Positions 11,401-61,092 of a stretch of DNA of 64,000 nt are shown here, one piece after another. The stretch's first letter is position 1, and each line of letters starts with the position of its first letter. Source of the DNA: an uncultured virus (IMG/VR IMGVR_UViG_3300005201_000716) (lineage: Duplodnaviria; Heunggongvirae; Uroviricota; Caudoviricetes). The stretch is from IMG/VR virus record IMGVR_UViG_3300005201_000716; one strand, given 5' to 3'. The translations under genes and the position numbers were made by a program. The notes below the pieces were generated by a model, which saw only the letters and a program-made list of their open reading frames with translations, did no database searches and was not told the DNA's origin.

Positions 11401-11451
11401 GGCTCATAATACACTGCATTTATAGAAATGGCTCTAACCCAATCATCCGCT

Positions 11452-17325: not shown

Positions 17326-17328
17326 ATA

Positions 17329-30541: not shown

Positions 30542-30563
30542 TTTTAAAGGAGGAATATTCAAA

Positions 30564-32120: not shown

Positions 32121-32122
32121 GC

Positions 32123-33112: not shown

Positions 33113-33113
33113 G

Positions 33114-35423: not shown

Positions 35424-38400
35424 ATGTCTGATAATTTCGGGCTCAAAATTGGGGTCGAAGGCGAAAAGCAGTTTAAACAGGCTCTTTCGGAAATCAATCA
35501 GTCGTTTAAAGTCCTCGGCTCCGAGATGCAGTTAGTGACGAGCCAATTCGATAAAAACGACAAATCCGCAGCCGCGCTTGCTTCCCGGAATCAGGTACTC
35601 AATAAGGAGATCGACCAACAGAAAGACAAAATCACCACCTTGCGTTCGGCGCTTCAAAACGCGTCTGAGAGTTTCGGTGAAAATGATAAACGCACCCAAA
35701 GCTGGCAAATCGCTCTGAATAAAGCCGAAGCCGAGCTTAATGGCATGGAGCGGGAGCTTGGTGAAAATGAAAAAGCACTTGACGGCGTCGGCGACGAGAT
35801 GCAGGAAACCGCGAAAGACAGTGACAAACTGGGCGATGAGATGAATGAAACAGGTAAAGAGGCCGACGCTGCCGGAGGTAAGTTTGAAAAGCTGGGCAGT
35901 ATTCTCAAAGGCGTCGGCGCCGCTATGGGCGCGGCGTTTGTAGCGGTTGGCGCGGCTGTTATTTCAGCTACCAAGGCATTAACGGAAATGGCGGTCGGCA
36001 CGGCGGCTTACGCAGACAACATTCTTACTATGGCAACTAACACAGGAATGTCAACGGAGGCTTTGCAAGCATACAAATACGCCGCCGAATTGGTCGACGT
36101 TTCTATGGAAACACTCACAAAAAGTATGGCGAAGCAAATAAAGTCAATGGACGCGGCACGGGACGGCAACTCGAATATGCAAGCCGCATACGACGCTCTC
36201 GGCGTTTCCGTCGCCGACGTTAACGGTAAACTCCGCGACGGCGATACGGTATACTGGGAGGCTATCGACGCCCTCGGTAAAATAGAGGAAGGTGCGGAGC
36301 GCGATGCCCTTGCTATGCAGATTTTCGGCAAATCGGCGCAAGACTTAAATTCATTAATCGCCGTAGGTTCACAAGGAATAGCTGAACTAACGGATGAAGC
36401 GCATCGTATGGGCGTTATTATGTCCGAAGATATGCTGAATATGGCGGGTGCTTTCGATGATACCGTTCAAAGGCTTAAATCAGGAGCGGCCGCGGCCAAG
36501 AACGCTCTCGGTATGGTGCTGATGCCGCAGCTTAACGCGCTTGGCACAGAGGGAGTAGAGCTTCTCGGCAACTTCACCCGGAGTTTAAATGAGGCGGGCG
36601 GCGACTGGTCGAAAATCAGCGGTGTCATAGGTGAAGCGGTAGGCGGTATTGCCGATGTGATACTGGGTCAGCTTCCGCAAATCATAGAAACGTCGATGTC
36701 GATAGTATCCGCTCTCGGCGGGGCGATTTTAGATAACATCCCCGTACTGGCGGACACGGCTTCACAAATCGTAATGGGGCTTTTGGAAGGGCTTATAACC
36801 GCGTTACCCGGTCTGAGCGAGGGTGCGGTTGCCCTTGTGCTTGAACTTGTAAACGGTATACTGTCAAATTTACCTGCGCTGGTGGAAGCGGCAGTACAGA
36901 TGATAACAACACTGGTTATGGGTATAGCGGGCGCTCTGCCTGATTTGATACCGGCGGGTGTTAACGCCGTGACTGCGGTAGTTCAAGGCTTAGTGGATAA
37001 CCTTCCGATGTTATTGGACGCAGCGCTTCAGCTTGTCCTTGGATTGACACAGGGTATTTTGGACGCACTGCCCCAGTTAATAGCCGCGTTGCCCGCTATT
37101 ATCATCGGCATAGTGGACTTTATTATCGGCGCGATACCGCAAATCATTGACGCGGGCGTAAAACTTCTTATGTCACTGGTGGAGGCTCTGCCGGAAACTA
37201 CAACAGCGATAATAACGGCGATAGGGGCAGCAATCCCGCAGATTGCTGACGCGTTTATTAGTTTGCTTACCTCAGTAGTGGACGTTCTGCCTGAGATTAT
37301 CGCTATCATCGTAGACGTATTGCCACAGATAGTCACGGGTATTGTGGACGCGCTTCTTGAAGCGCTGCCCATAATAATGGAAACATTCGTTACATTGTTG
37401 ACTTCCCTCGTGGAAGCCCTGCCTCAGATTATTGAAGCCGTCGTAGCCGTGCTTCCTGAACTTATAAACGCGATTGTAAATACAATAAGAGAAGCCGTAC
37501 CCTTGTTGGTTGAAGCCGGAATAGAGCTTCTGACCGCGCTGATTGGCGCTTTGCCTGAAATAATCGCGGCGATAGTCGATGCTCTGCCTGAGATCATAGC
37601 GACGATAGTCGAAGCCTTGCGGACGATAATCGACGCGGTGTTATCGGCAATTGTGGATATGATACCGCTTCTAATCGACGCCGGAATAGACCTTTTTACA
37701 GCGCTTGTGGGAGCGTCTCCTGAAATTATTAAAACAATAGTAGAATTGATACCGATAATCATCACGGCGATTGTAGACGCTATAGTGGAAGCGATGCCGC
37801 TCATAATAGATGCGGGGATAGGACTTTTCACCTCGCTTATTGACGCTATGCCGGAAATTATTGAGGCCCTGCTAACCGCGATTCCGCAGATAATAACCAG
37901 TCTGATTGCAGCGATTATCGGCTCAATCCCGAAAATAATCGAAGCGGGTGTTAAGCTGTTTATTTCGCTGATTCAGAACCTACCAACTATTATAGCTGAG
38001 ATTGTGAAGGCAATCCCCGAGATCATCAAAGGATTAGTCACAGGGATATTAGGCTCAATTCCTCAGATTGTGGAAGCGGGGGTCAAATTATTTATTTCGC
38101 TTATACAGAACCTGCCGGCCATCATATGGGAGATTATCAAGGCCGTACCGCAGATCATATCCGCGCTTGTGGATGCTTTCACGGGTTATTGGAGCAAAAT
38201 GGGCGAGGTTGGAATGGACTTAATCAAAGGTTTATGGCAGGGGATTTCCGACGCGGGCGCTTGGCTTCGGGATAAAATATCAGGTTTCTTCGGCGGCGTA
38301 GTTGACAGTATTAAGGATTTTTTCGGCATACACTCGCCGTCTACATTGTTTGCGAAACTTGGCGGTAATATGGCCGAGGGCCTTGGAGCCGGTTTCGGCG

Positions 38401-38657
38401 CGGAGATGAACAAAGTCGGCCGGGATATGCAAAAAGCGATTCCGACCGATTTTAGCGTAGCCGCTAACATTCGCGGCGGGTTCGCCACGAGCGGCTATAG
38501 TGGAGACGGCGCGGGCGAGGATGGCGCGGGTATTGTCAACCACTTCCATTTAAACGGTGTCGTCGTCCGCGAGGAAGCGGACATAGACAAAATCGCGGGC
38601 GCATTGTTCAGGAAACAACAGCAAACGCAGCGTGGCAGAGGGGTGGTATTCGCTTGA
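35424..38657 (+). CDS. tape measure protein 1 (1077 aa)
   Basis: coiled-coil N-terminus, 11-residue LP.I..A repeats, FFGIHSPS C-terminal motif. Confidence 0.95.
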   Translation: MSDNFGLKIGVEGEKQFKQALSEINQSFKVLGSEMQLVTSQFDKNDKSAAALASRNQVLNKEIDQQKDKITTLRSALQNASESFGENDKRTQSWQIALNKAEAELNGMERELGENEKALDGVGDEMQETAKDSDKLGDEMNETGKEADAAGGKFEKLGSILKGVGAAMGAAFVAVGAAVISATKALTEMAVGTAAYADNILTMATNTGMSTEALQAYKYAAELVDVSMETLTKSMAKQIKSMDAARDGNSNMQAAYDALGVSVADVNGKLRDGDTVYWEAIDALGKIEEGAERDALAMQIFGKSAQDLNSLIAVGSQGIAELTDEAHRMGVIMSEDMLNMAGAFDDTVQRLKSGAAAAKNALGMVLMPQLNALGTEGVELLGNFTRSLNEAGGDWSKISGVIGEAVGGIADVILGQLPQIIETSMSIVSALGGAILDNIPVLADTASQIVMGLLEGLITALPGLSEGAVALVLELVNGILSNLPALVEAAVQMITTLVMGIAGALPDLIPAGVNAVTAVVQGLVDNLPMLLDAALQLVLGLTQGILDALPQLIAALPAIIIGIVDFIIGAIPQIIDAGVKLLMSLVEALPETTTAIITAIGAAIPQIADAFISLLTSVVDVLPEIIAIIVDVLPQIVTGIVDALLEALPIIMETFVTLLTSLVEALPQIIEAVVAVLPELINAIVNTIREAVPLLVEAGIELLTALIGALPEIIAAIVDALPEIIATIVEALRTIIDAVLSAIVDMIPLLIDAGIDLFTALVGASPEIIKTIVELIPIIITAIVDAIVEAMPLIIDAGIGLFTSLIDAMPEIIEALLTAIPQIITSLIAAIIGSIPKIIEAGVKLFISLIQNLPTIIAEIVKAIPEIIKGLVTGILGSIPQIVEAGVKLFISLIQNLPAIIWEIIKAVPQIISALVDAFTGYWSKMGEVGMDLIKGLWQGISDAGAWLRDKISGFFGGVVDSIKDFFGIHSPSTLFAKLGGNMAEGLGAGFGAEMNKVGRDMQKAIPTDFSVAANIRGGFATSGYSGDGAGEDGAGIVNHFHLNGVVVREEADIDKIAGALFRKQQQTQRGRGVVFA

Positions 38658-39202
38658 AATATGGATATGGCTTTACATTTAATAATAAACACAGCGGGGA
38701 TTTTCGCGTTGTGGCGAAGTCTGACGACAGAAGCCTTTTGCCCGAAAAACGGCGTAACGAGTTTGTCGTGCCGGGGCGCGACGGCGCGGTTGATTATGGA
38801 AACAGCACCTACGAAAAGCGCGTCATAACGGTAAGGATTACACTGGTAACGTATAATCTGCAAAACTTACGTGAAGCGGCGCGCTTGGCGGCCAAGTGGC
38901 TTTCCGGCGACGGGCTTTTGATTTTTGACGACGAACCGGGCAAGGCATACCGGGCGAGGGTTTATCAGCCGCTTTCGATTACGCAGTTAATAAATTGCGG
39001 TGAAACCGTTGTGCCGTTCGAGTGTCAGCCGTTTGCCGAAAGCCCGCTTTATAATCAGATAACGGAAATGATAAGCGACAAGCCCCACGAAACGCCTGTC
39101 ACGCCTACGGGTACGCAAGATATGCCGTGTATTATTTATATTAAAAATGTCGGAACTGCTGATGTATCAAATATAACGATTACAAGAAAGGCGGGCGAAT
39201 AA
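38654..39202 (+). CDS. distal tail (Dit)-like protein, module 1
   Basis: FTFNNKHS, VPGRDG, LIFDDEP.K.Y.A, F.CQPFA. Confidence 0.85.
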   Translation: MKYGYGFTFNNKHSGDFRVVAKSDDRSLLPEKRRNEFVVPGRDGAVDYGNSTYEKRVITVRITLVTYNLQNLREAARLAAKWLSGDGLLIFDDEPGKAYRARVYQPLSITQLINCGETVVPFECQPFAESPLYNQITEMISDKPHETPVTPTGTQDMPCIIYIKNVGTADVSNITITRKAGE

Positions 39203-39203
39203 A

Positions 39204-40028
39204 ATGTCTAACGCTTCAAACTGGCTGGAAGAAGCGGTTTTAAACCACTTCTTCCGAAATAGCACTGTGTCAAGCCCGGCACAAGTGTTCTTGGCTTTGT
39301 ATAAAACAAATCCCACGGATTTTGATAATGGTATAGAGATTTCCGGAGGCGGGTATGTCCGCCAACAGATAACATTTTCCGCTCCGGCGCAAATCGCCGG
39401 GGTCGGTACAATCAGCAACAATAACACGCTCGTATTCCCCGAAGCGACTGCGGACTGGACGGGCGCGAATGAAAGCGTCGGCTATTGGGGCGTTCGAACC
39501 GCGCTGTCAGGCGGGAGCTTGCTTGCCTACGGCGAGTTTCTGGATGTAGGAAAACTTAACGACGGCAAATACGCCGTCACGCAGAACGACCAGTTCAACG
39601 TAGGCGCGGGCAGGGTTACGATTCAATTCAATCAGAAAGCCAGTAACTGGCTTCAAAACGCCGTGCTGAATCATTTTTTTCGCAGTACGCCTGTTATTAG
39701 CCCGTCGCAGATATTTCTCGCTTTGTATAAGTCCGATCCGACCGGGGCGGACGTCGGAGTGGAAATAACCTACACAAGCTACGCGCGGCAATTGGTGACC
39801 TTCGACGTGCCGACACAAATTTCGGGTAACGCCGTGGTAAAAAACAGCGCGGCAATAAACTATCCAATACCCGATACGGACATTGGCTCCGTGCCGTTCT
39901 TCGGCTTGCGCGACGCGTCAGCAAGCGGGAATCTGCTGGCTTATGCCGCTTGGGACATAGCGAAAAATATATCGGCGGGTATGCAGTTTAGCGTGAACGC
40001 CGGAAACATCGAGGTTTCTATGGCATAA
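39204..40028 (+). CDS. virion protein made of two tandem copies of one domain
   Basis: ASNWL..AVLNHFFR...SP.Q.FLALYK..PT occurs twice. Confidence 0.75.
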   Translation: MSNASNWLEEAVLNHFFRNSTVSSPAQVFLALYKTNPTDFDNGIEISGGGYVRQQITFSAPAQIAGVGTISNNNTLVFPEATADWTGANESVGYWGVRTALSGGSLLAYGEFLDVGKLNDGKYAVTQNDQFNVGAGRVTIQFNQKASNWLQNAVLNHFFRSTPVISPSQIFLALYKSDPTGADVGVEITYTSYARQLVTFDVPTQISGNAVVKNSAAINYPIPDTDIGSVPFFGLRDASASGNLLAYAAWDIAKNISAGMQFSVNAGNIEVSMA

Positions 40029-40065
40029 CCGCTGACAGCGAGAGCGAGGAAGGAGGCGACAGCAC

Positions 40066-40851
40066 TTGTTTAACCGGCAGTATTTTAACAGGGGCAAGTT
40101 TAACGTGTCGGCTTTACAGCTTGCCATAAGCGGCGTAGCGGCTTTGGTTCTTGTGGGAAATGTAAAGGGCAGCCTTATGCTTCAGGCGCCGCCGTCGCTT
40201 GTGAATATTAAATTGAACGCATACGGCAAACAGACAATGAAATTGAACGCGCCTGATATAGCGGCAGAGTTACAGCTTGGCGCGGGCGGTCAAAGCACGA
40301 ACCGATTATTCGCCGCCGGTCCCGCATCCGATTTTACGCTCGACGCTTCAGGCTTAATGAAACTTGTAATCACAGCGCCCGACTCCGCCGCCGAAATGCA
40401 GCTTGACTCAATTGGACTCGGTTTTCGCCGTTATTATGCCGATTCGCCGGAGGTGGCTTCGGTGTTAGGTTTGTCGGGGCGCGGTTCACGGATTATGTTT
40501 GCTGATTTGCCTGCTGTTATGTTCAAACTGTACTTACGGGGCGAGAGTTTACGGAAATTCTTGGCGTCCACTCCATCCGTGCCGATAAATTTAAACACAA
40601 AAGGCTCGGCGGTAATGTTTGGATACTCCACACTCTTCCTGCCTGATTTAGTCGTCCCGCCGGATGGTGAGCTTGTTATCGACACAGAAAATATGACTAT
40701 AACGCTAAACGGTGAAAATGTGACGCGATTCTTCGGCCAGGACAGCGAATTCTTCAAGCTGAAGCCCGGAGAGAACATTGTCATCTATGAGGATGGGGAG
40801 CAGAACAGGGATATTTCCTACAAAATTCTATGGAAGGATTTGTGGCTGTAA
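40066..40851 (+). CDS. tail-associated protein with Dit-like C-terminus
   Basis: LVIDTENMTITLNG, FFKLKPGEN.V. Confidence 0.65.
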   Translation: MFNRQYFNRGKFNVSALQLAISGVAALVLVGNVKGSLMLQAPPSLVNIKLNAYGKQTMKLNAPDIAAELQLGAGGQSTNRLFAAGPASDFTLDASGLMKLVITAPDSAAEMQLDSIGLGFRRYYADSPEVASVLGLSGRGSRIMFADLPAVMFKLYLRGESLRKFLASTPSVPINLNTKGSAVMFGYSTLFLPDLVVPPDGELVIDTENMTITLNGENVTRFFGQDSEFFKLKPGENIVIYEDGEQNRDISYKILWKDLWL

Positions 40852-41084
40852 TGAAAATAATCATAAACCAAAACGGGAGCGGATTTTTCACGGTCGGAAA
40901 TAATCAGTTTTACAATATCTCGAATGCCGAGATTGACGGCTCGGTTGTATTCAGCGTCGGCGTCGAGAACATCAGCTTCGGGCTGTACAAAAAAGAGAAC
41001 CGGGCGATAGCGGCGCTTAACGCGCTAATGAGCTTCGTTACCGACGATGCTTGCGATACATATCGCTTCGAGCCGGATAAATGA
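40851..41084 (+). CDS. hypothetical protein
   Basis: translationally coupled (TAATG). Confidence 0.6.
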   Translation: MKIIINQNGSGFFTVGNNQFYNISNAEIDGSVVFSVGVENISFGLYKKENRAIAALNALMSFVTDDACDTYRFEPDK

Positions 41085-41122
41085 GTTTGTATGCTAAGTA
41101 ACTGGGAGAGGAGAGAATCGTT

Positions 41123-43114
41123 TTGGCTCAAGCGGACACTATTCAAGTATTCGGACAGAACCGTCAGAGATTGGCGTTTTTGCAAAACGCTTTTAGCATT
41201 GGCTATAAAAAGTCCCTTAACAGCCTTTGGACGGCGTGTTTCTCACTCCCTTCAGACGATCCGAAAAACCAATACTGCAAACCGTTCAACTATGTGGAAC
41301 TATACGACGGCACGGAGCGCGTGGAGCTTTTCCGTATAATCGGCGAGGATTTAACGAGAAGTACACAGGCGGTAACAGTCTACAATTGCGAACACGTCCT
41401 CGCGACGCTGATTGACGACGTTTTATTCCAATACCATCAAATCGGCAATCTCGGCGTGTTCACACCGACTGTCATCCGATATATCCTTGACCGCCAGGCC
41501 ACGCAAAACTGGCGGCTTGGGCGTTGTGATTTCGACCGCCAGTTTGAGTATAAATGGGAGAACGAGAACCTTCTCGCGGCACTGTTTTCCGTGGCAAAAC
41601 CGTTCACGGAGCGGTTTATCTGGCAATGGGACACAACGGGTTATCCGTGGACGTTAACCCTCAGTGAGCTTGCCGATGATGTAAAATCTGAAATCCGCTA
41701 CGGCAAGAACATAGCGCAGATAACCAAGACGACCGATGCCACGAACGTTATAACCCGCCTGTATTGTTTGGGCTATGGCGAAGGTGACAATCAGCTTGAT
41801 ATAAGAGCCGTCAACAACGGCGTGCCATACCTCGACGCTCCGACGATGCCGACTTGGGGCCTCAAAACGTCAATCCTTGCCGATAGGCGTTTCGAGGACG
41901 CTGAGAGCTTGAAAGCGTATGGGCAGCAAATCCTTAACGCCGCGCAGGACCCGTTTGTATCATATTCGGCGCAGGCGGTGGATTTATATAAACTCACGGG
42001 GCAGAGATACGATAAGTTTGTGGTCGGCGATATGGTAAAAATCGTAGACAGCGCGGACGGCGTCAATGATATATATCCGATTGTGGAAATTGAAAAAATT
42101 GATTTGACCGGCAATCCCGGCGCGGTTAGCGTCACTATCGCCAACAAGTCGAGAGATTTATCCGGCAGTATAACGGATTTGCAAAACAGGGCCTTGATTA
42201 ATGACTTGTACGCGCAAGGCGCGACAAACCAAGTTATGGTCGGTTTTGCCGATAACGCCGACAAGGATAACCCCGCTCTGATGAAGCTGTATGTGCCGGA
42301 GAGTATGGTGCGCGTTAATTCCTGCGTCCTCAACTTCGAGTTTGAACCTTTCCGCGCGTATGAACGCGGCGTGGCGAGCGCACAGCAAAATGTATATTCC
42401 ACCAGTTCCTCAAACACAACGACCAGTACCTCGAGCGCGGAATCAACGCAGACGCAATCCACAAGCTCGGAAAGCGCTCAGACCCCGACGACATCATCAT
42501 CAGGTTCCGACAGCCGCTCTACTGACAGTGGCGGCGGTTCGGTACCTACATCGTCACAGGACGGTACGAATAATATATGGAATCTGGCTGGTTCTTATAG
42601 CATTCCCGATGTTATGTCGCTTTCGGGAACACCCGGCCACGCGCATGGTTTAGTGCCGCATAACCACCCGCACACGCACACAATACAAATTTCGGCTCAT
42701 AGTCATACCGTGACGATACCCGGACATAACCACACCGTAACTATACCGAGCCATAATCACACGGTGACGATACCCGGTCACAGCCATACCGTGAATATTC
42801 CGGGGCATAACCACAGCGTGACGATTCCGGCGCATACACACGCGATGGAGTACGGCATTTTTAAGACAGGCGGTGTTAACGCGGGGCGGCTGTTCATAAA
42901 CGGGCAGTATGCTCAGGACGTTTTGCCAAACACGAACATCAATCTCGCTAATATGCTGGCAGACGCGAATACAAGAAGGATTAGCCGGAACACATTCCAT
43001 CGTATTGAAATCTATCCAACGGCTACAGGTGGCAACGCCCAAGGGCTGACGCGGATAGTGGCTAATATTTTTATGCAGATATTTACAAACAGCCGTGGGA
43101 GCGGCGATTTTTAG
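41123..43114 (+). CDS. Tal/tail-spike protein, module 1 (prophage tail endopeptidase-like N-terminus, Ser/Thr linker, HxH repeats)
   Basis: IRYGKN, ITRLY..GYGEG, GD.V.I.D; repeated H(S/N)HTVTIP. Confidence 0.85.
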   Translation: MAQADTIQVFGQNRQRLAFLQNAFSIGYKKSLNSLWTACFSLPSDDPKNQYCKPFNYVELYDGTERVELFRIIGEDLTRSTQAVTVYNCEHVLATLIDDVLFQYHQIGNLGVFTPTVIRYILDRQATQNWRLGRCDFDRQFEYKWENENLLAALFSVAKPFTERFIWQWDTTGYPWTLTLSELADDVKSEIRYGKNIAQITKTTDATNVITRLYCLGYGEGDNQLDIRAVNNGVPYLDAPTMPTWGLKTSILADRRFEDAESLKAYGQQILNAAQDPFVSYSAQAVDLYKLTGQRYDKFVVGDMVKIVDSADGVNDIYPIVEIEKIDLTGNPGAVSVTIANKSRDLSGSITDLQNRALINDLYAQGATNQVMVGFADNADKDNPALMKLYVPESMVRVNSCVLNFEFEPFRAYERGVASAQQNVYSTSSSNTTTSTSSAESTQTQSTSSESAQTPTTSSSGSDSRSTDSGGGSVPTSSQDGTNNIWNLAGSYSIPDVMSLSGTPGHAHGLVPHNHPHTHTIQISAHSHTVTIPGHNHTVTIPSHNHTVTIPGHSHTVNIPGHNHSVTIPAHTHAMEYGIFKTGGVNAGRLFINGQYAQDVLPNTNINLANMLADANTRRISRNTFHRIEIYPTATGGNAQGLTRIVANIFMQIFTNSRGSGDF

Positions 43115-43128
43115 TTGGAGGTGATTTT

Positions 43129-43596
43129 TTGGCTTTACAGGAAATGTATCCGGCTGCGGTGAACTCCGTCGCGACGGCGTTAACGGGCGGTATCGGCGCG
43201 AATGATACCGTTTTTTATGTCCTTGACGACTCAAGGATTCCGGACCCGCCGAATCTGCTCGTTATCGGCGAAAATTCCGCAATGGCTGAGACGGTAAAGC
43301 TCATAGCCAAAGACGGGAACGAGTTGACGGTTATTCGCGGGTTTCAAAACTCTCCGCGCGCATGGGATGCCGGAACAACGGTGTCCCGAAATTTTACCGC
43401 TTATGACCACGACGCTTTTAAGGACAACATCGAAACACTAAACGCCGGACAGACTGACCTCGATATCGAACAAGGCGCGCATAAAGCGGCGGCGTTACCC
43501 CATATAACGAGTGACGGGACTTACAGTTACGGCTTCCGCGTAGATAGCGGTAATCTGATTTTTGTATACGAAGAGCGAGGTGAACCGAATGAGTGA
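43129..43596 (+). CDS. tail-associated hypothetical protein
   Basis: MYPA..NS..T, AETV, RGFQ...RAW..G..VSRNFTAYD; RBS GGAGGTG. Confidence 0.75.
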   Translation: MALQEMYPAAVNSVATALTGGIGANDTVFYVLDDSRIPDPPNLLVIGENSAMAETVKLIAKDGNELTVIRGFQNSPRAWDAGTTVSRNFTAYDHDAFKDNIETLNAGQTDLDIEQGAHKAAALPHITSDGTYSYGFRVDSGNLIFVYEERGEPNE

Positions 43597-46744: not shown

Positions 46745-46759
46745 ACGGGGAGGCGAAAA

Positions 46760-47011
46760 ATGTACAGTCATAAAATTTGGGATAAGGTTACACCTATTAA
46801 CGGCGTCGCGGCGGCTGATGTATTAAAAATCCATAACATAACAAAGGGCGCGGTCGGCATTGTCTCAGACGATAAAGGACACGTAGTTGTGCTTCAGTAT
46901 GACAATGCGAATCCGCTGTCAAAAGCGGATTTGACGGCGAAGCTAAAACTGTTAACAAAGGAAATGAACAAGCCTACTTTGGCAGAACCGGAGGTGGTTG
47001 AAAATGATTAG
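46760..47011 (+). CDS. small hypothetical protein (possible fibre chaperone)
   Basis: RBS GGAGG; IWDK.TPING motif; follows the RBP. Confidence 0.65.
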   Translation: MYSHKIWDKVTPINGVAAADVLKIHNITKGAVGIVSDDKGHVVVLQYDNANPLSKADLTAKLKLLTKEMNKPTLAEPEVVEND

Positions 47012-47073
47012 CGAGGCACACGGAAAATAGGATGAGCGGCGAGGTATACGGACAGCGAGGGAGATGACACAAA

Positions 47074-49626: not shown

Positions 49627-49638
49627 AGGGTGTGCGGC

Positions 49639-50412: not shown

Positions 50413-50416
50413 GTGT

Positions 50417-52930
50417 ATAGCGGTAAAATCAGTTTTAACAGCGCAAGAAGATTTCACGGGAGAGTTTCCGATTACCGCAAAAACCGCCGTTATGTGGCGA
50501 TTTAACGAAGCCGCGCCGGATGGTGAAACACGTTTGTTGGATTCTTCCGGTAAGGGGCGGCATTTGACTATTTCCGGTTGGAGCGGTACGACGGCCAATC
50601 TGTTAAATGGCCGCCACGGGCGGTATTTTCGGATGAACACCAATAACCCGACCACAGAAAAGACGCACCTGATCGCCACAAATGACGGTGCGTTTTTTAA
50701 TAACCTCGGTAGCAAAATCGCCGTGGGCGGTTGGATTAACCCTACCACATACTCAGTCGGGCAGACGTATATTCCGCTTTTCAATACAAGGCAAGGCCCC
50801 GGACAGCCGATTATATATATTTCGCTCTTAAGCGGCCGTCCTCGTATGATGCTGTACAACTCGGCGGGAACGCTGCTCCTCGACCAAAGCGAAACGCCGA
50901 CATTCAACTTTATAAATAACGGCTGGTACTTTATCGGGGCGATAATCAGCTTGGTTGGCAACACCTCGCAGATGCTCATATGCAACCGCGCGAACGGAAC
51001 GGTCTGGACGGCTCCTGTCCGTAATTATTCAGGTGTCCTCAACCCGTCCTGTACTGCAAACATCGTCTTAGGTATGCACGCCGACACCTATTATTACGCT
51101 GGTGGTTTAGACGACTGGTTCTTTGAAACCGATAGCGATTTAACTATCGGGGATTTGGAGCGGTATTTCCGGCAAGCGATAATGGCGAACGGCGGCGACA
51201 CTTCCGGCAACGTAGACGCGCTTGTCGAACCTGGCGCGGTGTTGCTAAAAAGGACAGGTAGCGATTATGCCGGGGACGGCGCGCTTATTACCACGGCGGC
51301 GCCTTGTTCGCTCTCCGGCAGCGGGCGCGTGTCGGTAACAAGCGAGTACACTGCGGGAACGACGGCAATCAGCCTGATTGAAACATCAACGTCTGATGAT
51401 ATGGCCAACTGGTCGGCTTGGCAGCCGGTCGGCGCAAGCGGTGAGTTGGCTTCGCCTAACAGGGAATACATCCGCTATCGCGTTACCCTGACCACAAACG
51501 ATACCAACATAACGCCAAAGCTGCTTGACATTCAGCTACACGATATACCGAGGCCGCCATATGAGCGGCTCGGTTTCGCCCGGCCTATGGTCTTGGATTT
51601 GAACGGCGCTTGGGAGTCGGTTCTTGAAAACGCCTACGACATTATTGTCACCGGCGAGGTCAACGGCGCGGATACTTTGGATTTTAAGATACCTTACAGC
51701 GACGCCAAGCGGCTAACTCTGGATAACGAAAAAGCCGTGCAGATAGTCAGCGATATATACCGAATCCGTACCATCACCGACGAAAAAAGCTCGGATGGCA
51801 GCGCGGTTACGACCGTGTACGCGGAAGCCGCGTTTTATGATCTGGCGTTTTCCGCTGAAAAGGAGCCGGTGGAATTTAACGCCGACAAAGCCGACGTCGC
51901 TATGCGTTACGCCCTGCAAGGTACGGGTTGGTCGGTAGGGACGGTCAATGTGACCACACTGCGGACTTGGATGTGCGAGGAGAAAAACGCTCTGGCTATA
52001 CTGCGTATGGTACAGAATATCCACGGCGGCGACTTAGTGTTTGATAACGGCAATAAAATCGTGCATCTGCTAACATTTAGCGGAAAGGAGAGCGGCGCGT
52101 TGTTCGCTTACCGCAAAAACCTTAACAGTATCAAGCGGGTGGTAGATACCCGTTCATTGGTGACGAGGCTGTATGCTTACGGCAAAGACGGTATGACCTT
52201 CGCATTGATTAACGGAGGCAAGGAATATGTGGAGGACTTCACCTATTCAAACGAAGTACGGGTATCCACGCTTGATTGCTCTAATTTTTCGAATCCATAT
52301 CAGATGTTGGAATTCGCCCGAATGTGTCTTGCGGAGTACGCAAAGCCGCGAGTTTCTTATGTACTGTCCGCTATGGATTTGTCGGTACTGACAGGCTACG
52401 AACACGAACAGTGGGAACTTGGTGATATTGTCACGGTGGATGACCGCGATTTGAATATGACGGTTCAGACACGGATTATCCGGCGGGAATACAATCTGCA
52501 AGAGCCGTGGAAAACAGTGCTGGAACTGTCCTCAAAGCTGCGGGAGTTGGGTGATTCATCAACGGATGCCATCGCGGATCAGCTTGACCAGTCCAATCTA
52601 ATCGGGCAGGAAATAAAGGATATGGTGCCGTTTAACCATCTGCGGAACAGCCGCGCGGATGATGGCTTCGCCTACTGGCAGAATTCCGGATTTACGGTTG
52701 ATACCGATAATGGCGTGTCCGGCACGGCTTCGTTCAAAGCAACAGGCGTGTCAAATATGACAAAGAGCATAGCGCAGACGGTATATCCTGCGAACCGCCG
52801 TAGTTATACCATTTCCGCGCAGATAGGCTCGGAAAATTTACAAAAAGGCTCTGGCGGTCAGGTCGGTATTGAGGTTGTGTTCGAGTACGAGGACGGGACG
52901 ACTGAAACACGGTTTATTGATTTGTTCTGA
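50417..52930 (+). CDS. Tal/tail-spike protein, module 2 (LamG-like N-terminus, prophage-tail domain, CBM-like C-terminus); apparent start codon is ATA
   Basis: WRFNE...DSSG, GGLDDW, YRKNL, LVTRLYAYGKDG; RBS GGAGGTG then in-frame ATA GCG GTA AAA; first ATG at 50492. Confidence 0.85.
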   Translation: MAVKSVLTAQEDFTGEFPITAKTAVMWRFNEAAPDGETRLLDSSGKGRHLTISGWSGTTANLLNGRHGRYFRMNTNNPTTEKTHLIATNDGAFFNNLGSKIAVGGWINPTTYSVGQTYIPLFNTRQGPGQPIIYISLLSGRPRMMLYNSAGTLLLDQSETPTFNFINNGWYFIGAIISLVGNTSQMLICNRANGTVWTAPVRNYSGVLNPSCTANIVLGMHADTYYYAGGLDDWFFETDSDLTIGDLERYFRQAIMANGGDTSGNVDALVEPGAVLLKRTGSDYAGDGALITTAAPCSLSGSGRVSVTSEYTAGTTAISLIETSTSDDMANWSAWQPVGASGELASPNREYIRYRVTLTTNDTNITPKLLDIQLHDIPRPPYERLGFARPMVLDLNGAWESVLENAYDIIVTGEVNGADTLDFKIPYSDAKRLTLDNEKAVQIVSDIYRIRTITDEKSSDGSAVTTVYAEAAFYDLAFSAEKEPVEFNADKADVAMRYALQGTGWSVGTVNVTTLRTWMCEEKNALAILRMVQNIHGGDLVFDNGNKIVHLLTFSGKESGALFAYRKNLNSIKRVVDTRSLVTRLYAYGKDGMTFALINGGKEYVEDFTYSNEVRVSTLDCSNFSNPYQMLEFARMCLAEYAKPRVSYVLSAMDLSVLTGYEHEQWELGDIVTVDDRDLNMTVQTRIIRREYNLQEPWKTVLELSSKLRELGDSSTDAIADQLDQSNLIGQEIKDMVPFNHLRNSRADDGFAYWQNSGFTVDTDNGVSGTASFKATGVSNMTKSIAQTVYPANRRSYTISAQIGSENLQKGSGGQVGIEVVFEYEDGTTETRFIDLF

Positions 52931-52950
52931 TGAGATGAGACGGTGATTTT

Positions 52951-53145
52951 ATGGCATATTTTCAACATATAGCGCGGGATGCTTCGCCGAAGGGTTACGG
53001 CAAACTGCGCTCCATCACCGTCCGTCTCGTTATTCATAACTGCACAGGTGAAGTGTGGTTTACTGACCTTATGCTACAGGCAGGTTCACTTGCCACTGGG
53101 TGGGTCGGCCATATCTGTGAAATAAAGTGGACGATGGATGGGTGA
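52951..53145 (+). CDS. small tail-associated protein
   Basis: SITVRL...CTG.VWFTDLMLQ.G resembles the N-terminus of 55429-55995. Confidence 0.75.
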   Translation: MAYFQHIARDASPKGYGKLRSITVRLVIHNCTGEVWFTDLMLQAGSLATGWVGHICEIKWTMDG

Positions 53146-53432
53146 TTAATGAATAGTAATAAAAAGTGATAATACTACAATAATAACTGTAGGTTAATTT
53201 CTTAATATTTTTAGTATAATTGGATATTCGATACATTATTGAGCGAAAGCGCATAAAAATCTGAAATTTTGTTATATGGTAGATGTTAAAATTGTGTCCT
53301 TGTGTTGACAATCAAGGTTTACATTGATAAATATTCGATTAGGTTTCGCGTGATAAGGTGAATCATTTATATTGATAATTCGAACGCTAAATAAATACTG
53401 AATGCTACGTATAAATACGAGGAGGCGATTCA

Positions 53433-53756
53433 ATGTCTCATGGATATAATGGAAAATATATGACAAGAGCTGAGATTGATGAATTGGAACACACTTTCGA
53501 TTCTGATGAATGCTTAAAATTTGTGAAAAGTCTTCTTGATTCGCTTGATAATGATGAAGCATTTGGTGTTTGCAGATATTATTTACATAACGGTTATGAA
53601 ACCTTATCAGAAAAGCAAAAAAAAGTTTTCAAAATAGCATTACAACAAAACCTCTTAAAATGCAGTCGCTGTGAAGATTTTTATTGGATAGAAGCCGAAT
53701 TTGTCATTGATAACGGGCTTTGTAGCTATTGCCAGCAATCTTGGGATAATAGCTGA
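53433..53756 (+). CDS. hypothetical protein with C-terminal CxxC..CxxC Zn site
   Basis: RBS AGGAGG; CSRC and CSYC. Confidence 0.8.
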   Translation: MSHGYNGKYMTRAEIDELEHTFDSDECLKFVKSLLDSLDNDEAFGVCRYYLHNGYETLSEKQKKVFKIALQQNLLKCSRCEDFYWIEAEFVIDNGLCSYCQQSWDNS

Positions 53757-53862
53757 TAAACACAGCAGAAGAAAGCTATATTTTGACGATTGAATAAAAA
53801 ATCCGGCACCGTCAAAAGTAGCAACTTAAATACATTAAGGATAATAGAAGAGGAACAATACA

Positions 53863-54414
53863 ATGTACACTTTTAGAAGCAGAGAGCAAGGATCACTTAA
53901 AGTTTATGGTAATATTACTGGCCCGATTGAGGATTTTATTTCGTTGTTTTCTGCTTTTGAAGAATTGTATAATTTAGTTCTTGTTTTATCTGAGTCTTTG
54001 ATATTTGACGAATACATCAATGTGTCAATGCTTAGAAAGCTACTAAAGAGTAGCATAAATACTCATCGGTATGGCGATTATTATTTAAGAAGCTATGAGT
54101 CTGACCTTATATTACCTGAAGAACGACTTGTATTATCAAGTATCAATTTTAGTTCAACTGGTATATTTGATTTGTTAGGTGTTGCTTCGGTGCTTGAACA
54201 AATCAGAGAGTTTATTAAAGATATAACATATAGAAACAACCAACAAAAATGGGCGGGGAGAATTGAATTGTTGCAAAAAATTAATGATTCATCTCTTATA
54301 CAAGAAGAAAAACGTTTATTAATTAATAAAATCTATGCGCCTCTTAATAGGATCAAACGTGATATTGATATGAAAAAGATTACAGATGTAAAATCAGGAG
54401 AAGCTAAAGAGTAA
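53863..54414 (+). CDS. hypothetical moron protein
   Basis: RBS GAGG; 183-aa ORF in AT-rich DNA. Confidence 0.75.
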   Translation: MYTFRSREQGSLKVYGNITGPIEDFISLFSAFEELYNLVLVLSESLIFDEYINVSMLRKLLKSSINTHRYGDYYLRSYESDLILPEERLVLSSINFSSTGIFDLLGVASVLEQIREFIKDITYRNNQQKWAGRIELLQKINDSSLIQEEKRLLINKIYAPLNRIKRDIDMKKITDVKSGEAKE

Positions 54415-54460
54415 TCTCTTCACCTTATTATACAAAGATGTAAATCAAATTCACAGATGG

Positions 54461-54862
54461 GTGATACTGTTGATAATACAAAAAGTAATTAATCCTGATA
54501 TAGTAGAATACCCATCAGTATTGGGAGGCAATAATACAGGCTATCTTCACGGTTGTGCCATATGTCAGTTTTTTTTTAATAAAGGATGGAGTGATGAACC
54601 TCAAGATATTTATTCAATACTAAGTTCTACATCAAATAAAACTGAGTTTAATCAACTATGCTTGAATTCAACGCATTGCGCTCCAATCATTGAAAAATTT
54701 TTAAATGGAACATATAAGGCAAAATACGACGGTGGTAATGGTGCCGATGATATTTACGTATGGAATAATGGCGATGCAATAGTGGCAGTAGAAGGAAAGC
54801 ATAGAATATGTATTGCAAAGCGGTTTAAAATTAAGGAAATTCCAGTTATTTTTGATGAATAG
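54461..54862 (+). CDS. hypothetical protein with ParB/Srx-like motif, start uncertain
   Basis: VAVEGKHRICIAK...IPV resembles the ParB/Srx (D/E)GxHR motif. Confidence 0.55.
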   Translation: MILLIIQKVINPDIVEYPSVLGGNNTGYLHGCAICQFFFNKGWSDEPQDIYSILSSTSNKTEFNQLCLNSTHCAPIIEKFLNGTYKAKYDGGNGADDIYVWNNGDAIVAVEGKHRICIAKRFKIKEIPVIFDE

Positions 54863-54933
54863 ATAGTATATTTCAGCTTTCATGCTATTAGGTGCTGTAG
54901 AAATATATTAAAATAAATTAAGAGGTTGATATA

Positions 54934-55341
54934 ATGCCCTCTGATAGAAACAGAAAAAGTAGTGGCACGAAACTATTCCCAGTGATACCCGTAGCAGTCT
55001 CCGTTTCAAGCGTGGCTGTTTTGGTCGGTGTTATCTTTTATAGCGTCGCTGCACATACAGAAAAGCAATTTGCAGAACAACAAGCTCAACAGGCGATACA
55101 ACAAACAGTCGAGTATCAAAAATCCATGCAAAGAATAACTTGCATAGGCAACCAACGCACATTGGGCTTCGCAGAGAAGATTTGGGCTGCCCTGCTGGAA
55201 AACTCCGAAAGGCCTGCTTTGGGTAACCTTTCGCCAACCTATACAGGCGAATTTACATGCCCCACAGGCGGAACATATTCACCGGGGCCGGGAGAATTTA
55301 TATGGGTGTGTTCTGACCCGGATCACACGCAAACTCCGTAA
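54934..55341 (+). CDS. pilin/pseudopilin-like membrane-anchored protein
   Basis: N-terminal hydrophobic helix, C..NQR.L, CPTGGTY, VCS..H. Confidence 0.55.
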   Translation: MPSDRNRKSSGTKLFPVIPVAVSVSSVAVLVGVIFYSVAAHTEKQFAEQQAQQAIQQTVEYQKSMQRITCIGNQRTLGFAEKIWAALLENSERPALGNLSPTYTGEFTCPTGGTYSPGPGEFIWVCSDPDHTQTP

Positions 55342-55428
55342 TTCTAATTTTAAAGGTAAAAAAAAAACTTACATATCAAAAGACCGCTACGGTGGTCTTT
55401 TTTTATACCCAAAAGGAGGTACGGTTCA

Positions 55429-55995
55429 GTGGTGATTAATTTTATACGGTTCACGGAAACCGTAAAAATCAAGTCCGAAAAACGCGTGGTCAGCGTCACC
55501 GTCCGACCGCAAATTGCCGACTGTACCGGCACGATACTTTTCACCGACATTCAGCTTCAGGAAGGTGGCAAGCTGACCGGCTACACAAAACATACAGAAA
55601 CTATGCTCTGTAACAGCATAAACGCTCCGCGCTACCAAAATGGCGTGGTGCGTGGCGGTGCAACGCTTGTGCTGTTTAATACCGGGGAAACCTCGGCGGC
55701 TCTTGATGTCTATATATATCCGAAGCAACCGATGACAGCGGGCAGCGTTCAGATTTCGCAGGGTATGGGGTCGCACTTATGCCGCTTTATGTCGTCAGTA
55801 AGCGCGGGTGATAAATTGGCGCTCAAGGCATCTACCCGCCAATGTCTGAAGAACGAAAGCCCAACGCCAAAAGATGGGTTTTATCAATACACCGCCGCAT
55901 ATGATAGCAAGCATCAAGTAAAGTTGGATGACAGGATATCGGCGCGAGTTTATATGGAATATACGGAAATGATGGAAGGAGAGCCAAGCCCATGA
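55429..55995 (+). CDS. tail-associated hypothetical protein
   Basis: RBS AAGGAGGT; coupled to the GH18 gene. Confidence 0.8.
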   Translation: MVINFIRFTETVKIKSEKRVVSVTVRPQIADCTGTILFTDIQLQEGGKLTGYTKHTETMLCNSINAPRYQNGVVRGGATLVLFNTGETSAALDVYIYPKQPMTAGSVQISQGMGSHLCRFMSSVSAGDKLALKASTRQCLKNESPTPKDGFYQYTAAYDSKHQVKLDDRISARVYMEYTEMMEGEPSP

Positions 55996-58463
55996 GCAGA
56001 GATTATCTGAAAGGTAAAAAATGTATGGTTTGGTCGTTCATGGGCAACAGCCGTATGTTCCAAGCCCTGAACAACTACGGTGACCGCTTTGAAGCTGTTG
56101 GCATTTTCACGTTTGAGGTGGATATCACCGGCACGATTTCCGAAACGGGGACGCCGATTTCGGGTATGCTTCCATACATCAACAAGTGGCCGAAGGTGCG
56201 GTGGTTCCTCACTGTGATGAACCACGGTGCGGCTTCCATTTTTACCGCGCTCCGTAATAACACGAGCGGCGCGAAGACGATGTTTTTATTCGAGCTTGTA
56301 CGGATTATGCAGAAATATCCGTGGTGCGCGGGTGTGGATATCGACTTGGAGCGCGGTGGCGAGTACGAAAACAAGGACGCGGCGAATGATTTGTTTCGCG
56401 ATATTTACCAGACAGTAAAAGCGTTTAACTCTGCCAAACTGGTCAACATCTGCCTGCCGGGTATGACCTCGGTCAATGGTTCAGTCGGCGGCGAGAATTG
56501 GGCAGTGTACGCAGACCTTGACGCATACTGCGACACCGCCGCCATTATGTCTTACGGAATGGCGTGGGCGGGTTCAGCGCCGGGGCCTGTTTCGCCCCGT
56601 GATTGGCTGGTGGGTATCTACGATTACGCAAGCAAAGTAATGGACCCGCAGAAAATATATATGGGATTGCCGGGTTATGGATGGGAGTGGCAGATTTACG
56701 CAAATCCCGCTGATATCGGTAAGACTTACCGGGGCGTTTCGCTGACATATTACGCCGCCAAGATATGGGCGGAGGGTGGCTATAACTTTACGGGCAACGC
56801 TCCGCCGCAGCCGATGATACCGTGGCTCGCCTATTGGGATGATTATGACCAAGTCCCGTATATGTTTCCGCAAGTCTACGATTACGCTGAAGGTGGCGAC
56901 GCCGCGAGCCGTGAATCGCCGATGGTGGGCGATACATATAATCGTCGCCGCTATATAACTTGTTACAGTAAAACGCAAAAGGCAGAGTTTGGTACAATCT
57001 ATATCGACCGGGACGGTGAGCCGGACAGTTACACCGATGGCGTAGTGGTCGGCAACGGCACGATTACGCTTTCCACGGGCAGCGGCACGGCTGACTACAA
57101 TTTCACCATCAGCCAGTCCGGAAATTATGACGTGGCGGTAAGGATTTGCTTTCCGTTCTGGAATAAAAATGGCATAGACATATCGCTTGACGGCGTGTCA
57201 GTTGGTTATATGGAAAACCGTTTGTGGTGGCCCTATTGGAGAAAAACAATATGGTTCATCCTTGCCAATAACCGAAGCCTGTCGGCGGGAAGCCACATTC
57301 TTACCATCAACAGCGGCGTGGCGGGAGCGCAGTTCTACGGCTTTAGGGTCTGCTCGGCGTTCTCGGAACAGCCATCGGCGGGGAGTGCGATATTTGAGTT
57401 GTCACCACATAGCTTCAAGGACGTAAACGGCAATATGGCCGTGCCGGACAGGGGTTTTAAGCTGACCACCGAGGTCTTGCGGCGCAAGCCCGACTCGGCT
57501 TTGGCTTGGTATGAGGATTTCCGTGACCCCGTCACTTTGCAAAGTACATATTGGACTACTTTATATGGAAGCTGGGCGGTATGGCGGAGTGTGGAATGGT
57601 CGTCCGAGCGCGTTTACTCTCAGCTTGAGGGCAGTGGTCAGCTTGCTTGGAATTACAGTAATTTCAGCGATGTGCATATCAGAGCGCGTATAGCTTTTCC
57701 GCAGAACGGGAGCGGGCGTGCCGGTGTGTTCATCGGGAACATTTTCTGCTGTATTAACATTGATACGCAACGGGTGGAACTATATCAAGGCGCGTCGCTG
57801 CTCGGCAGTTACAGCGTGTCCTATTCGAAAACGCCAACCGTTGATATACGGACTGATCCGAATATGTACCTTATCGAAATGAGGAAGCGCGGGAACTGCG
57901 TGAGGGTATATTCCGGCAACAGCAACACGCTCCGTTTCACGGCAACAGTCAGCGCCACATCGGGTTATTGCGGTATCCAGTCGGACAGTGAAATCAAGTG
58001 CGAGCTGCTACGGCTTGGGGATGCGTGGTCATATGAGCCGTATGAAGCTTTCGATGTAACTATGCCCGATGGTTCGACCGAAAGCTACGGTAGAATTTTC
58101 CGGAGCGGCGTGTTGTGGGATTTGGAGTTTGAAGTTTTTACGGTCACTTCCGACGTAGAGGAATCCGCCACGCGGAATGAGGATATTTCAATGGATTACG
58201 ATTTTTTCCATAGTGCCATGCTTAACATCCCGTGTAATGCCGATTACATAGCGAAGTTCACACCGCGCGATATCAATGTCTGGTGCGCACGGCTGTTTCT
58301 TGGCGACAGGGACGGTTTCGGCATTGTCTATTACCAAGATGTGGACAGCATTGTCTATTGGGCGAATGAAGCCGCTTACCGATGGGGGTTGCGTGGCTTC
58401 GCTTTATGGTCGCTGGGTCAGGAGGACATTCGATTATGGGAGGCTATGCCGAAACAGATATAA
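55992..58463 (+). CDS. GH18 glycoside hydrolase with inserted carbohydrate-binding domains (virion-associated)
   Basis: GVDIDLE (DxDxE), IMSY, KIYMGLPGYG, C-terminal LRGFALWSLGQED. Confidence 0.88.
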   Translation: MSRDYLKGKKCMVWSFMGNSRMFQALNNYGDRFEAVGIFTFEVDITGTISETGTPISGMLPYINKWPKVRWFLTVMNHGAASIFTALRNNTSGAKTMFLFELVRIMQKYPWCAGVDIDLERGGEYENKDAANDLFRDIYQTVKAFNSAKLVNICLPGMTSVNGSVGGENWAVYADLDAYCDTAAIMSYGMAWAGSAPGPVSPRDWLVGIYDYASKVMDPQKIYMGLPGYGWEWQIYANPADIGKTYRGVSLTYYAAKIWAEGGYNFTGNAPPQPMIPWLAYWDDYDQVPYMFPQVYDYAEGGDAASRESPMVGDTYNRRRYITCYSKTQKAEFGTIYIDRDGEPDSYTDGVVVGNGTITLSTGSGTADYNFTISQSGNYDVAVRICFPFWNKNGIDISLDGVSVGYMENRLWWPYWRKTIWFILANNRSLSAGSHILTINSGVAGAQFYGFRVCSAFSEQPSAGSAIFELSPHSFKDVNGNMAVPDRGFKLTTEVLRRKPDSALAWYEDFRDPVTLQSTYWTTLYGSWAVWRSVEWSSERVYSQLEGSGQLAWNYSNFSDVHIRARIAFPQNGSGRAGVFIGNIFCCINIDTQRVELYQGASLLGSYSVSYSKTPTVDIRTDPNMYLIEMRKRGNCVRVYSGNSNTLRFTATVSATSGYCGIQSDSEIKCELLRLGDAWSYEPYEAFDVTMPDGSTESYGRIFRSGVLWDLEFEVFTVTSDVEESATRNEDISMDYDFFHSAMLNIPCNADYIAKFTPRDINVWCARLFLGDRDGFGIVYYQDVDSIVYWANEAAYRWGLRGFALWSLGQEDIRLWEAMPKQI

Positions 58464-61089: not shown

Positions 61090-61092
61090 GAA

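Follow-up and report, generated by a model that had tools for sequence, protein, structure and literature searches.

A siphovirus genome with two TMP-Dit-Tal modules behind one tail tube gene, most likely a tail-tip replacement in progress

Introduction

Siphovirus tail building starts from a nucleus of tape measure protein (TMP), Dit, and Tal. In Mu, P1, and Bordetella BPP-1, fibre ends are switched at defined sites by a dedicated enzyme, either an invertase or a DGR. The Vibrio cholerae PLE is a satellite that has its own TMP and hub and builds chimeric tails. Published accounts of 80alpha and TP901-1 describe one initiator, in which the TMP C terminus binds Tal and nucleates assembly (PMC7048315; PMC5099701), and siphovirus tail length has been given as 0.145 nm per TMP residue (PMC5099701). 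Tail tips are swapped freely within the phage group studied here, and one-step exchange is the usual picture.

The window that we analyzed, a 64,000-nucleotide stretch of DNA from the uncultured virus record IMGVR_UViG_3300005201_000716, resembles 80alpha and TP901-1 in its gene order (chaperone-TMP-Dit-Tal-fibres-lysis) but, unlike these phages as described, has two initiators of different lineages behind one tube gene. As in Mu, P1, and BPP-1, alternative receptor-binding parts are held in one genome, but here whole initiators are doubled, the ruler included. As with PLE, two TMP/hub sets would compete for one tube protein per cell; the second set of PLE is the parasite's, whereas here the two sets share one late operon.

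The best TMP matches among annotated phages were Ca. Heliusvirales-like Bacillota prophages (PMC11283538; PV036457; phi1605). The published criteria for Ca. Heliusvirales include nine marker genes and a TerL scoring >700 bits against the authors' HMM (PMC11283538). We found the TerL, portal, capsid, protease, polymerase, helicase, and nuclease markers in the window; the exonuclease and single-stranded DNA (ssDNA)-binding markers were not identified within it, and the genome extends beyond it. Among the best 54 Ca. Heliusvirales-like records listed, each has one TMP place, whereas the window has two. In literature drawn mostly from the main texts of nonsubscription journals, we came across neither a phage carrying two TMP-Dit-Tal sets nor a siphovirus whose single genome yields two tail lengths. 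Published papers on "two tape measure" phages deal with chaperones or separate phages.

Results

One set of head, neck, tube, and chaperone genes is followed, on one contig, by two TMP-Dit-Tal modules in tandem. This layout agrees with the initial annotation: TerL, portal, Clp protease, capsid, the adaptors, the major tail protein, and G/GT occur once each. All genes described here are on the + strand. Pfam and PHROG matches identified a packaging/head block with an intein-containing TerL, portal, Clp protease, and HK97-type major capsid protein (25876 to 31763), a neck block with an Ad1 adaptor, an inserted PAPS-reductase-like gene, Hc1, Ne1, and the tail terminator (31785 to 34211), and a single holin and endolysin (60676 to 62436). 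The single major tail protein (34217 to 34810, with the start set by homology) belongs to the phi13 family and scored above the TIGR01603 cutoff. Tail chaperone G and its GT extension follow (34825 to 35399). Frameshifting within G is suggested by a slippery A-run at 35190, where the -1 frame is open, and the GT extension stops 25 nt upstream of TMP1. The only N run in the window (10577 to 10723) is far from the tail genes. Both TMP frames are open, and each long helical TMP, identified by TMP PHROGs, is followed by a Dit gene above the TIGR01633 cutoff that also matches PF05709 and a Tal gene above the TIGR01665 cutoff that also matches PF06605, so that either module has the domain makeup of a TMP-Dit-Tal initiator. 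A sequence search of the PDB found no match to a gp27-like hub for Tal, Rfam gave zero matches, and PADLOC gave zero matches for seven insert or orphan proteins.

Module 1 starts with TMP1 (1,077 aa; 35424 to 38657), which occupies the native place behind G/GT. It is a mosaic of a family N terminus, residues ~1 to 590 collinear with relative L058, five extra 44-aa repeats, and a module-1-type C terminus. The module-1 Dit is split in two, with the N-terminal half at 38654 to 39202 and the C-terminal domain (PF22768) on its own gene at 40066 to 40851. An accessory protein with tandem Gp80 domains (PF23140 twice; 39204 to 40028) is conserved in module-1 loci. Tal1 (41123 to 43114) consists of a putative hub and an HxH needle-like C terminus; it resembles the T4 gp37 tip (2xgf) weakly, and its AlphaFold model, built on a 4-sequence alignment, had a pLDDT of 37. 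The remainder of the module (43129 to 47011) encodes a 155-aa accessory protein, a kelch-repeat protein (43562 to 46744) that from its position is a putative receptor-binding protein, and an 83-aa orphan for which an Atlas search gave zero usable matches. Start codons are normal throughout module 1, with TTG starting four of the genes.

Module 2 starts with TMP2 (850 aa; 47074 to 49626), a collinear orthologue of the single TMP in module-2 phages that has a module-2-type C terminus. It continues with Dit2 (49639 to 50412), Tal2 with an N-terminal extension ahead of the putative hub (50417 to 52930), a 64-aa module-2 gene (phrog_3473; 52951 to 53145), a 2.2-kb low-GC insert with four unrelated open reading frames (about 53150 to 55400), and intact genes, matched by Pfam and PHROG, for a 188-aa tail protein and an 823-aa GH18-domain minor tail protein (55429 to 58463). 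The module-2 Tal had been labeled as a LamG protein, and the Pfam scan gave no LamG. We considered the low-GC insert as a module-2 lesion and rejected it, because the same site is interrupted in 23 of 64 relatives' loci.

The two TMPs had been described as near identical at their N termini with a common internal block, and we measured 88% identity over residues 1 to 120 and an internal run of 44 identical residues. At the DNA level, a 533-nt stretch is 77% identical and a 352-nt stretch 74%; residues 200 to 400 of the proteins are only 27% identical, and no exact DNA match exceeds 17 nt. The earlier reading that the pair is not a fresh duplication was supported. Duplication within this genome was rejected as well: TMP1 and TMP2 as sisters failed an AU test (P = 0.024) on 18 rows that were picked post hoc from a 51-row tree as close relatives plus module-1 representatives, and their divergence equals that from single-TMP phages. 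The dN/dS pair for TMP1 and TMP2 was 0.092/1.41, matched by 0.061/1.46 and 0.070/1.22 for TMP2 against single-TMP phages. The argument drawn from third codon positions was correct in that dN/dS is low, but it does not support joint maintenance of the two copies; the equal dN and dS between TMP2 and single-TMP phages show that the selection predates co-residence.

The extreme C termini of the TMPs do differ, as noted earlier, and each follows its own tip type, with 26/32 (TMP1) and 31/32 (TMP2) positions agreeing with the cognate consensus and 10 to 11/32 with the noncognate one. This covariation suggests that each TMP C terminus is matched to its own Tal. The two tail motifs are themselves distantly alike (10 to 13/32 positions). 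In the loci read, with the single exception of G003 (described below), tail motif and tip type cosegregated (18 distinct module-2 and 4 module-1 tails), which is what the 80alpha/TP901-1 model, as published, predicts. At least four TMP-tail/tip types occur on a common backbone in this phage group. At 0.145 nm/aa, TMPs of 1,077 and 850 aa predict a tail-length difference of about 33 nm, within the 30 to 35 nm proposed earlier.

Comparison with relatives showed that the window is a module-2 phage carrying an 11.65-kb module-1 insert. It is collinear on both sides of the insert with the module-2-only prophage L061/G004 (72 to 83% identical in DNA across the head-tail and module-2 blocks), and in the closest backbones, L057 and L061, the TMP2 orthologue lies directly behind the chaperone. 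At the right junction (47012 to 47073), only the ribosome site resembles that of relatives. Only a single contig shows the arrangement, four of the five window proteins present in the collection cluster with no other protein at 90%, and there is an assembly gap elsewhere in the window, all of which would suit a chimeric join of two phages near this junction and/or a consensus error at the Tal2 start codon. We find such an artifact doubtful, however. The junction contains neither N nor a repeat, exact TMP repeats reach no more than 17 nt, and a repeat-mediated join would yield one hybrid TMP rather than two. Moreover, both arms match one common relative, the junction lacks the GT-gene remnant expected ahead of a true second phage's TMP, and codon usage in the module-1 core resembles that of the backbone (r of about 0.8).

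Other prophages that keep both modules in this synteny did not emerge. None of the 79 viral records with a match had two TMPs per tail block: 78 had a single TMP, and the remaining record, G106, was rejected as a second dual-TMP example because it is two whole prophages in tandem. Of the distinct TMPs of this family for which upstream DNA is available, 99 in number, none is in second position, and all 99 come after chaperone or tube genes. TMP matches in two genome samples (4/88 and 16/400) included none with two copies per tail block, and a DNA scan for the TMP 5′ motif found no contig twice among the 80 stretches listed of 116. The dual layout is not conserved in the diverged relatives searched, where most close module-1 contigs stop soon after Tal1 and a second module downstream is possible.

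Both tips are present in one other record, G003 (L002; IMGVR_UViG_3300002238_000007), which is 98% complete. It shares with the window the backbone type, the two tip modules, and Tal2 as the damaged gene. It differs in having one TMP, in placing module 1 downstream of module 2 and a holin, and in having a Tal2 that is destroyed (two frameshifts and four stops) and not merely start-less. G003 lacks the downstream module-2 genes and has an intact module 1, and among its backbone genes that were compared, only one accessory HTH match contains stops. G003 Tal1 is 72% identical to the window Tal1, indicating an independent event. The sole TMP is an intact 1,165-aa frame whose module-2-type tail agrees with the module-2 consensus at 20/32 positions, below all 18 module-2 tails. 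This pairing of an intact module-2-tailed TMP with only Tal1 intact, together with the intact TMP2 of the window and the distant likeness of the tail motifs, would suit a scheme in which Tal2 is off while TMP2 is still produced and docks in the tip of module 1, yielding two tail lengths with one receptor. We regard this scheme as very unlikely, since motif and tip type cosegregate in all other loci read and since the G003 tail has drifted, whereas the unchanged TMP2 tail may misfit Tal1.

Module 2 had been described as complete, but its start signals are not. Tal2 actually begins with the ATA at 50417 and not with the ATG at 50492, and its frame is otherwise open; ATG, GTG, or TTG is found in 35/35 relatives' contexts, and the ATA depends on a single base of a single contig. 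The Dit2 ribosome site scored below those of 50/50 relatives, on a crude score that also puts TMP1's own site below 124/124 relatives. The ribosome site of the 64-aa gene is weak (3/43 relatives are equally weak), and that of Tal2 is strong. There are no nonsense or frameshift changes across about 2,700 module-2 codons, and conserved sites are not enriched in private changes (Tal2, 2/324; GH18, 2/330; Dit2, 0/80), a pattern that taken by itself speaks against silencing. Start loss represents a small share of the possible single-base inactivating changes (42/969), which makes pure drift an unlikely cause; tuned low expression fits equally well. Terminator-like sites numbered 32, versus 24.0 ± 4.8 in shuffled sequences, with none within 47012 to 47073, and the promoter/terminator scan gave nothing convincing at that junction.

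The Tal2 start also bears on the proposal that recombination between the TMP repeats acts as a one-way switch, by which loss of module 1 would turn the phage back into a module-2 type. The direct repeats are 11,650 nt apart with 77% identity, and the deletion product would resemble G004. The longest exact match is short, however, and the product would keep only the tip that depends on the ATA-start Tal2. Among the largest repeats listed, we found no dedicated flanking recombination sites and no invertase-type sites, inverted or direct; the only homology was that between the TMP coding sequences. We consider this switch highly improbable.

Prophages often decay, and private changes in module-1 genes exceed those of relatives, as they might in a recently inactivated prophage where neither module matters now. 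This excess is confounded, because most of the relatives derive from a handful of similar metagenomes and lie closer to one another than to the window. Every structural, lysis, and visible recombinase gene of the window has an open frame, and we give recent inactivation very little credence.

Discussion

The window is most likely a rare snapshot of tip replacement and not a two-particle virus. The reading that we prefer, to which we give slightly better than even chances, is that a replacement was caught halfway, with a new tip added and the old set being silenced. The ancestor would have been an ordinary family phage with one TMP and a module-2 tip. A TMP with a module-1 tip from another family member would have entered behind the chaperone gene and ahead of the resident TMP; the newcomer TMP1 now occupies the native slot, probably by recombination. 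From what is known of siphovirus assembly, both modules, in one late operon, would then compete for the tube protein and chaperones. Recombination between the TMPs can remove module 1 alone, which leaves point lesions or unrelated deletions as the only ways to lose module 2. The lost Tal2 start codon and the eroded Dit2 ribosome site would be the first of these lesions and would lower expression, so that the particles made would be mainly module-1 virions with tails of about 138 nm. G003 resembles a more advanced stage of this add-then-silence process, and it may instead be a defective phage and no end state, given that its sole TMP has a module-2-type tail.

The initial annotation proposed bet-hedging through two virion types, and this is unsupported as it was argued, in view of the lack of a dual-TMP relative, the module-2 start lesions, and the pseudogenized Tal2 of G003. 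Taken broadly, two particle types (tail lengths of about 138 and 105 nm), with separate tips and receptors or with both rulers on the module-1 tip, are rather unlikely. A maintained system, with a module-1 majority (about 138 nm) and a module-2 minority (about 105 nm, with another receptor), is unlikely; the ATA start and the weak Dit2 site would then set the particle ratio. Such a system would be consistent with the cognate C terminus kept on each TMP, the open module-2 frames without excess private changes, the strong Tal2 ribosome site, the lack of a convincing terminator between the modules, and lesions that fall on initiation signals and not on the far larger nonsense target. A recent merger would equally leave pristine proteins, however, and the dN/dS signal is older than the merger. 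There is also no second phage with two TMPs per tail block, and the only other two-tip record has lost Tal2. If both modules are used, this would be a one-genome siphovirus with two tail lengths, hedging host range or infection mode by doubling the whole initiator without a switching enzyme.

Together with G003, the window suggests a second route to a new tip, by addition, coexistence, and then silencing that begins with the old Tal. The window further offers a natural test of whether the last 30 residues of a TMP choose its tip, a choice that bears on building phages with exchanged tails. Erysipelothrix phage phi1605 has the module-2 gene set in identical order, and module 1 is rare on the Ca. 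Heliusvirales-like backbone.

Gene content of the window

Gene annotation with domain and family searches indicated that the window covers most of a Bacillota siphoprophage. It carries a single packaging and head block, neck block, major tail gene, G/GT chaperone, holin, and lysin, together with replication genes, methylases, and the beginning of a serine recombinase gene. Two TMP-Dit-Tal sets lie after the single G/GT chaperone and before the holin and lysin, which bears out the initial annotation of two such sets behind one head and tail tube set. Module 1 (35424-47011) starts with TMP1 (1077 aa) and a split Dit, continues with a Gp80-domain protein and Tal1, and ends with a 155-aa protein, a kelch protein, and an orphan of 83 aa. 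In module 2 (47074-58463), TMP2 (850 aa), Dit2, and Tal2 precede a 64-aa gene and a low-GC insert, beyond which lie a 188-aa gene and one encoding a GH18-domain protein. Every part of the window is of a known kind; no description of two initiators behind one tube gene emerged from the literature searched (including PMC11283538, PMC7048315, PMC5099701, PMC3271669, PMC3357382, PMC8407745, PMC3447690, PMC3556154, and PMC5028729).

Each tape measure is matched to its own tip

We scored the last 32 TMP residues of the fetched loci against module-1 and module-2 consensus sequences, and these residues sorted by the downstream tip type. Eighteen distinct module-2 tails matched the module-2 consensus at 25 to 32 positions and the module-1 consensus at 11 to 13, and four module-1 tails showed the reverse pattern. 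The TMP1 tail matched at 26 (module 1) and 10 (module 2) positions and the TMP2 tail at 11 and 31, respectively, so each TMP appears to belong to its own tip. This sorting agrees with the 80alpha structure, in which the C-terminal helix of the TMP sits in Tal (PMC7048315). Where this backbone carries still other tip types, the TMP tails differ again; phages of this family therefore seem to exchange tips routinely, with the breakpoint falling within the TMP gene.

TMP1 owes its additional length to a 220-aa block made of 44-aa repeats. Using 0.145 nm per TMP residue and a 127-aa offset (PMC5099701), tails are predicted at ~138 and ~105 nm. That a single tip is served by two rulers is improbable. 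In the locus L344 (IMGVR_UViG_3300010163_001419:332-754), the TMP 5' motif occurs in two copies 399 nt apart, which suggests that the N-terminal part of this TMP was duplicated internally.

TMP1 and TMP2 have separate ancestries

The two TMPs are 88% identical over residues 1 to 120, which is the family level (88 and 88% for the relative L146, and 86 and 88% for the close backbone L057), and their identical 44-aa block is also matched at 44/46 positions by three module-2 loci. Over residues 200 to 400 they are only 27% identical to each other; there, TMP1 is closest to L058, L107, and L133 (64 to 66%) and TMP2 to L146, L057, and L142 (80 to 86%). The dN/dS check proposed earlier for the shared segments gave 0.092/1.41 for TMP1 versus TMP2, the same as for TMP2 versus single-TMP phages (0.061/1.46 and 0.070/1.22). 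A tree constraining TMP1 and TMP2 together was rejected (p-AU, 0.024) with 18 rows picked after a 51-row tree had been made. The third-position differences, initially read as joint purifying selection on both copies, therefore reflect past selection in separate genomes rather than joint maintenance; by these comparisons, TMP1 and TMP2 were not shaped together.

Module 1 is the newcomer

From the terminase to the TMP 5' end, the window runs collinear with L061/G004, a prophage with module 2 only (72 to 83% DNA identity), and collinearity resumes from TMP2 through the GH18 gene (77 to 79%) and on to the holin. Those close module-1 phages that are represented by long contigs are more distant from the window in their backbones (tube identity of 61 to 67% versus 83 to 87% for L061 and L057). 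Module 1 is therefore an 11,650-nt insert, and it occupies the native position after the chaperone gene. In the 62 nt 5' of TMP2 there is a ribosome site only, with no chaperone remnant. Several other relatives have 1- to 4-kb inserts at the chaperone-TMP site; a related annotated phage has a reverse transcriptase gene there (L055, 17851-19641).

A single 89-kb contig is the source of the window proteins matched in the collection, 4/5 of which are singletons at 90%; this counts toward an assembly artefact. However, there is no repeat or gap at the module junction and both arms match one relative; a real recombinant is therefore favored, in keeping with the initial annotation, and an artefact is unlikely.

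The two-module state is rare

Loci were taken from the matches listed for Tal1, Dit1, TMP N-terminus, Tal2, and TMP1 tail queries. Among the 371 such loci that were 3 kb or longer, only L002 (also present as L307) had two genes each for Dit and Tal, and chaperone or tube genes preceded every one of the 99 distinct family TMPs that had 1.5 kb or more of upstream sequence. Eighty longer viral records were searched whole; 79 matched, 78 of these with one TMP. The initial annotation had proposed a search for other prophages keeping both modules; the 79 matching records included no second phage with two TMPs in one tail block. G106 (L426-L428) was rejected as such a case, since it consists of two tandem copies of a related whole prophage, which lie ~31 kb from each other and have separate heads and tails. 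No adjacent TMP pair occurred in the genome samples (TMP matched in 4/88 and 16/400). Most close module-1 contigs extend less than 4.5 kb beyond the start of Tal1, limiting the view of what follows, which is visible only in L295 (lysin-like gene), L220, and L223 (unrelated genes). The double-module state thus appears to be rare.

L002 corresponds to G003 (IMGVR_UViG_3300002238_000007; 48.5 kb, 98% complete), which has one TMP followed by Dit2, Tal2, holin, and an intact module 1. Two frameshifts and four stops interrupt its Tal2, and the module-2 genes that would follow are absent. No stops occur in its head, neck, or tube genes, so this damage is specific and does not stem from noise in the sequencing. 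The Tal1 proteins of G003 and the window share 72% identity, and the gene order differs, so the tip was acquired independently. G003 appears to be a second, older case of two tips; its TMP tail is of module-2 type and has drifted (20/32 to consensus, below all 18 other module-2 tails).

Module 2 carries initiation lesions

The initial annotation took module 2 to be complete. The ORF finder places the Tal2 start at ATG 50492, but relatives carry 25 more conserved residues upstream, where the frame in the window is open and the homologous start is ATA at 50417, preceded by a strong ribosome site. Across 35 distinct relative contexts, the start is ATG, GTG, or TTG in 34 and an ATG one codon later in 1. 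ATA is a poor initiation codon. The Dit2 ribosome site scores weaker than those of 50/50 relatives, and few relatives (3/43) have a site for the 64-aa gene as weak as the one here; however, the TMP1 site also ranks last among 124, which makes the score only a rough guide. Compared with relatives, module-2 proteins show no excess of private changes, and start loss represents 42/969 single-base inactivating targets. That the prophage is dead is very improbable. The pattern of lesions, seen post hoc, fits selection turning module 2 down, toward loss or as rationing. Stable use of two tips with module 2 rationed is doubtful.

Given the gene architecture, the cognate TMP tails, the separate ancestry of the two TMPs, the rarity of the layout, the initiation lesions, and the parallel in G003, we somewhat favor replacement of the tail tip by addition and then silencing. 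A module-1 initiator would have been added behind the chaperone, both sets would then coexist, and module 2 would be silenced. Both modules would be cotranscribed and compete for tube protein and chaperones; Tal2 output would be reduced and module-1 virions would dominate. A crossover between the TMPs could delete only module 1, so module 2 would linger. The earlier proposal that such recombination is a one-way switch is weakened by a longest exact TMP1/TMP2 match of only 17 nt and by a product dependent on the ATA-started Tal2, and we consider it highly unlikely. The two-initiator arrangement is real and rare and most likely transient.

Other features of the window

The space separating the 64-aa gene from the 188-aa gene is an insertion hot spot, being occupied in 23/64 loci by inserts of 0.4 to 4.1 kb (loci L142-L214); the four genes of the window's insert (53150-55400) had no match in Pfam, PHROG, NCBIfam, or PADLOC. 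The sole N run, and only assembly gap, is at 10577-10723, inside a tandem array (10202-11402) of ~15 or more 71-nt units (some 61 nt) between the late regulator and small terminase; the array had no Rfam match and is possibly an origin or packaging-related region. A 35- to 90-nt intergenic element has six copies 3' of small moron-like genes (23256, 23715, 24924, 25343, 25784, and 59163), and a second, promoter-like repeat occurs at 19558, 21201, 23346, 24318, 25040, and 58512; together these resemble an array of small-gene cassettes. A LAGLIDADG-type insertion within the large terminase (25876-28503), which most relatives lack, is likely an intein. A PAPS-reductase-like gene (32108-33112) is inserted between the head-tail adaptor and head closure genes, and a similar sequence sits at another position in L061. 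At 13851-19569, three DNA methyltransferase genes, for two adenine enzymes fused to ParB and one cytosine enzyme, stand in a row with a radical SAM gene.
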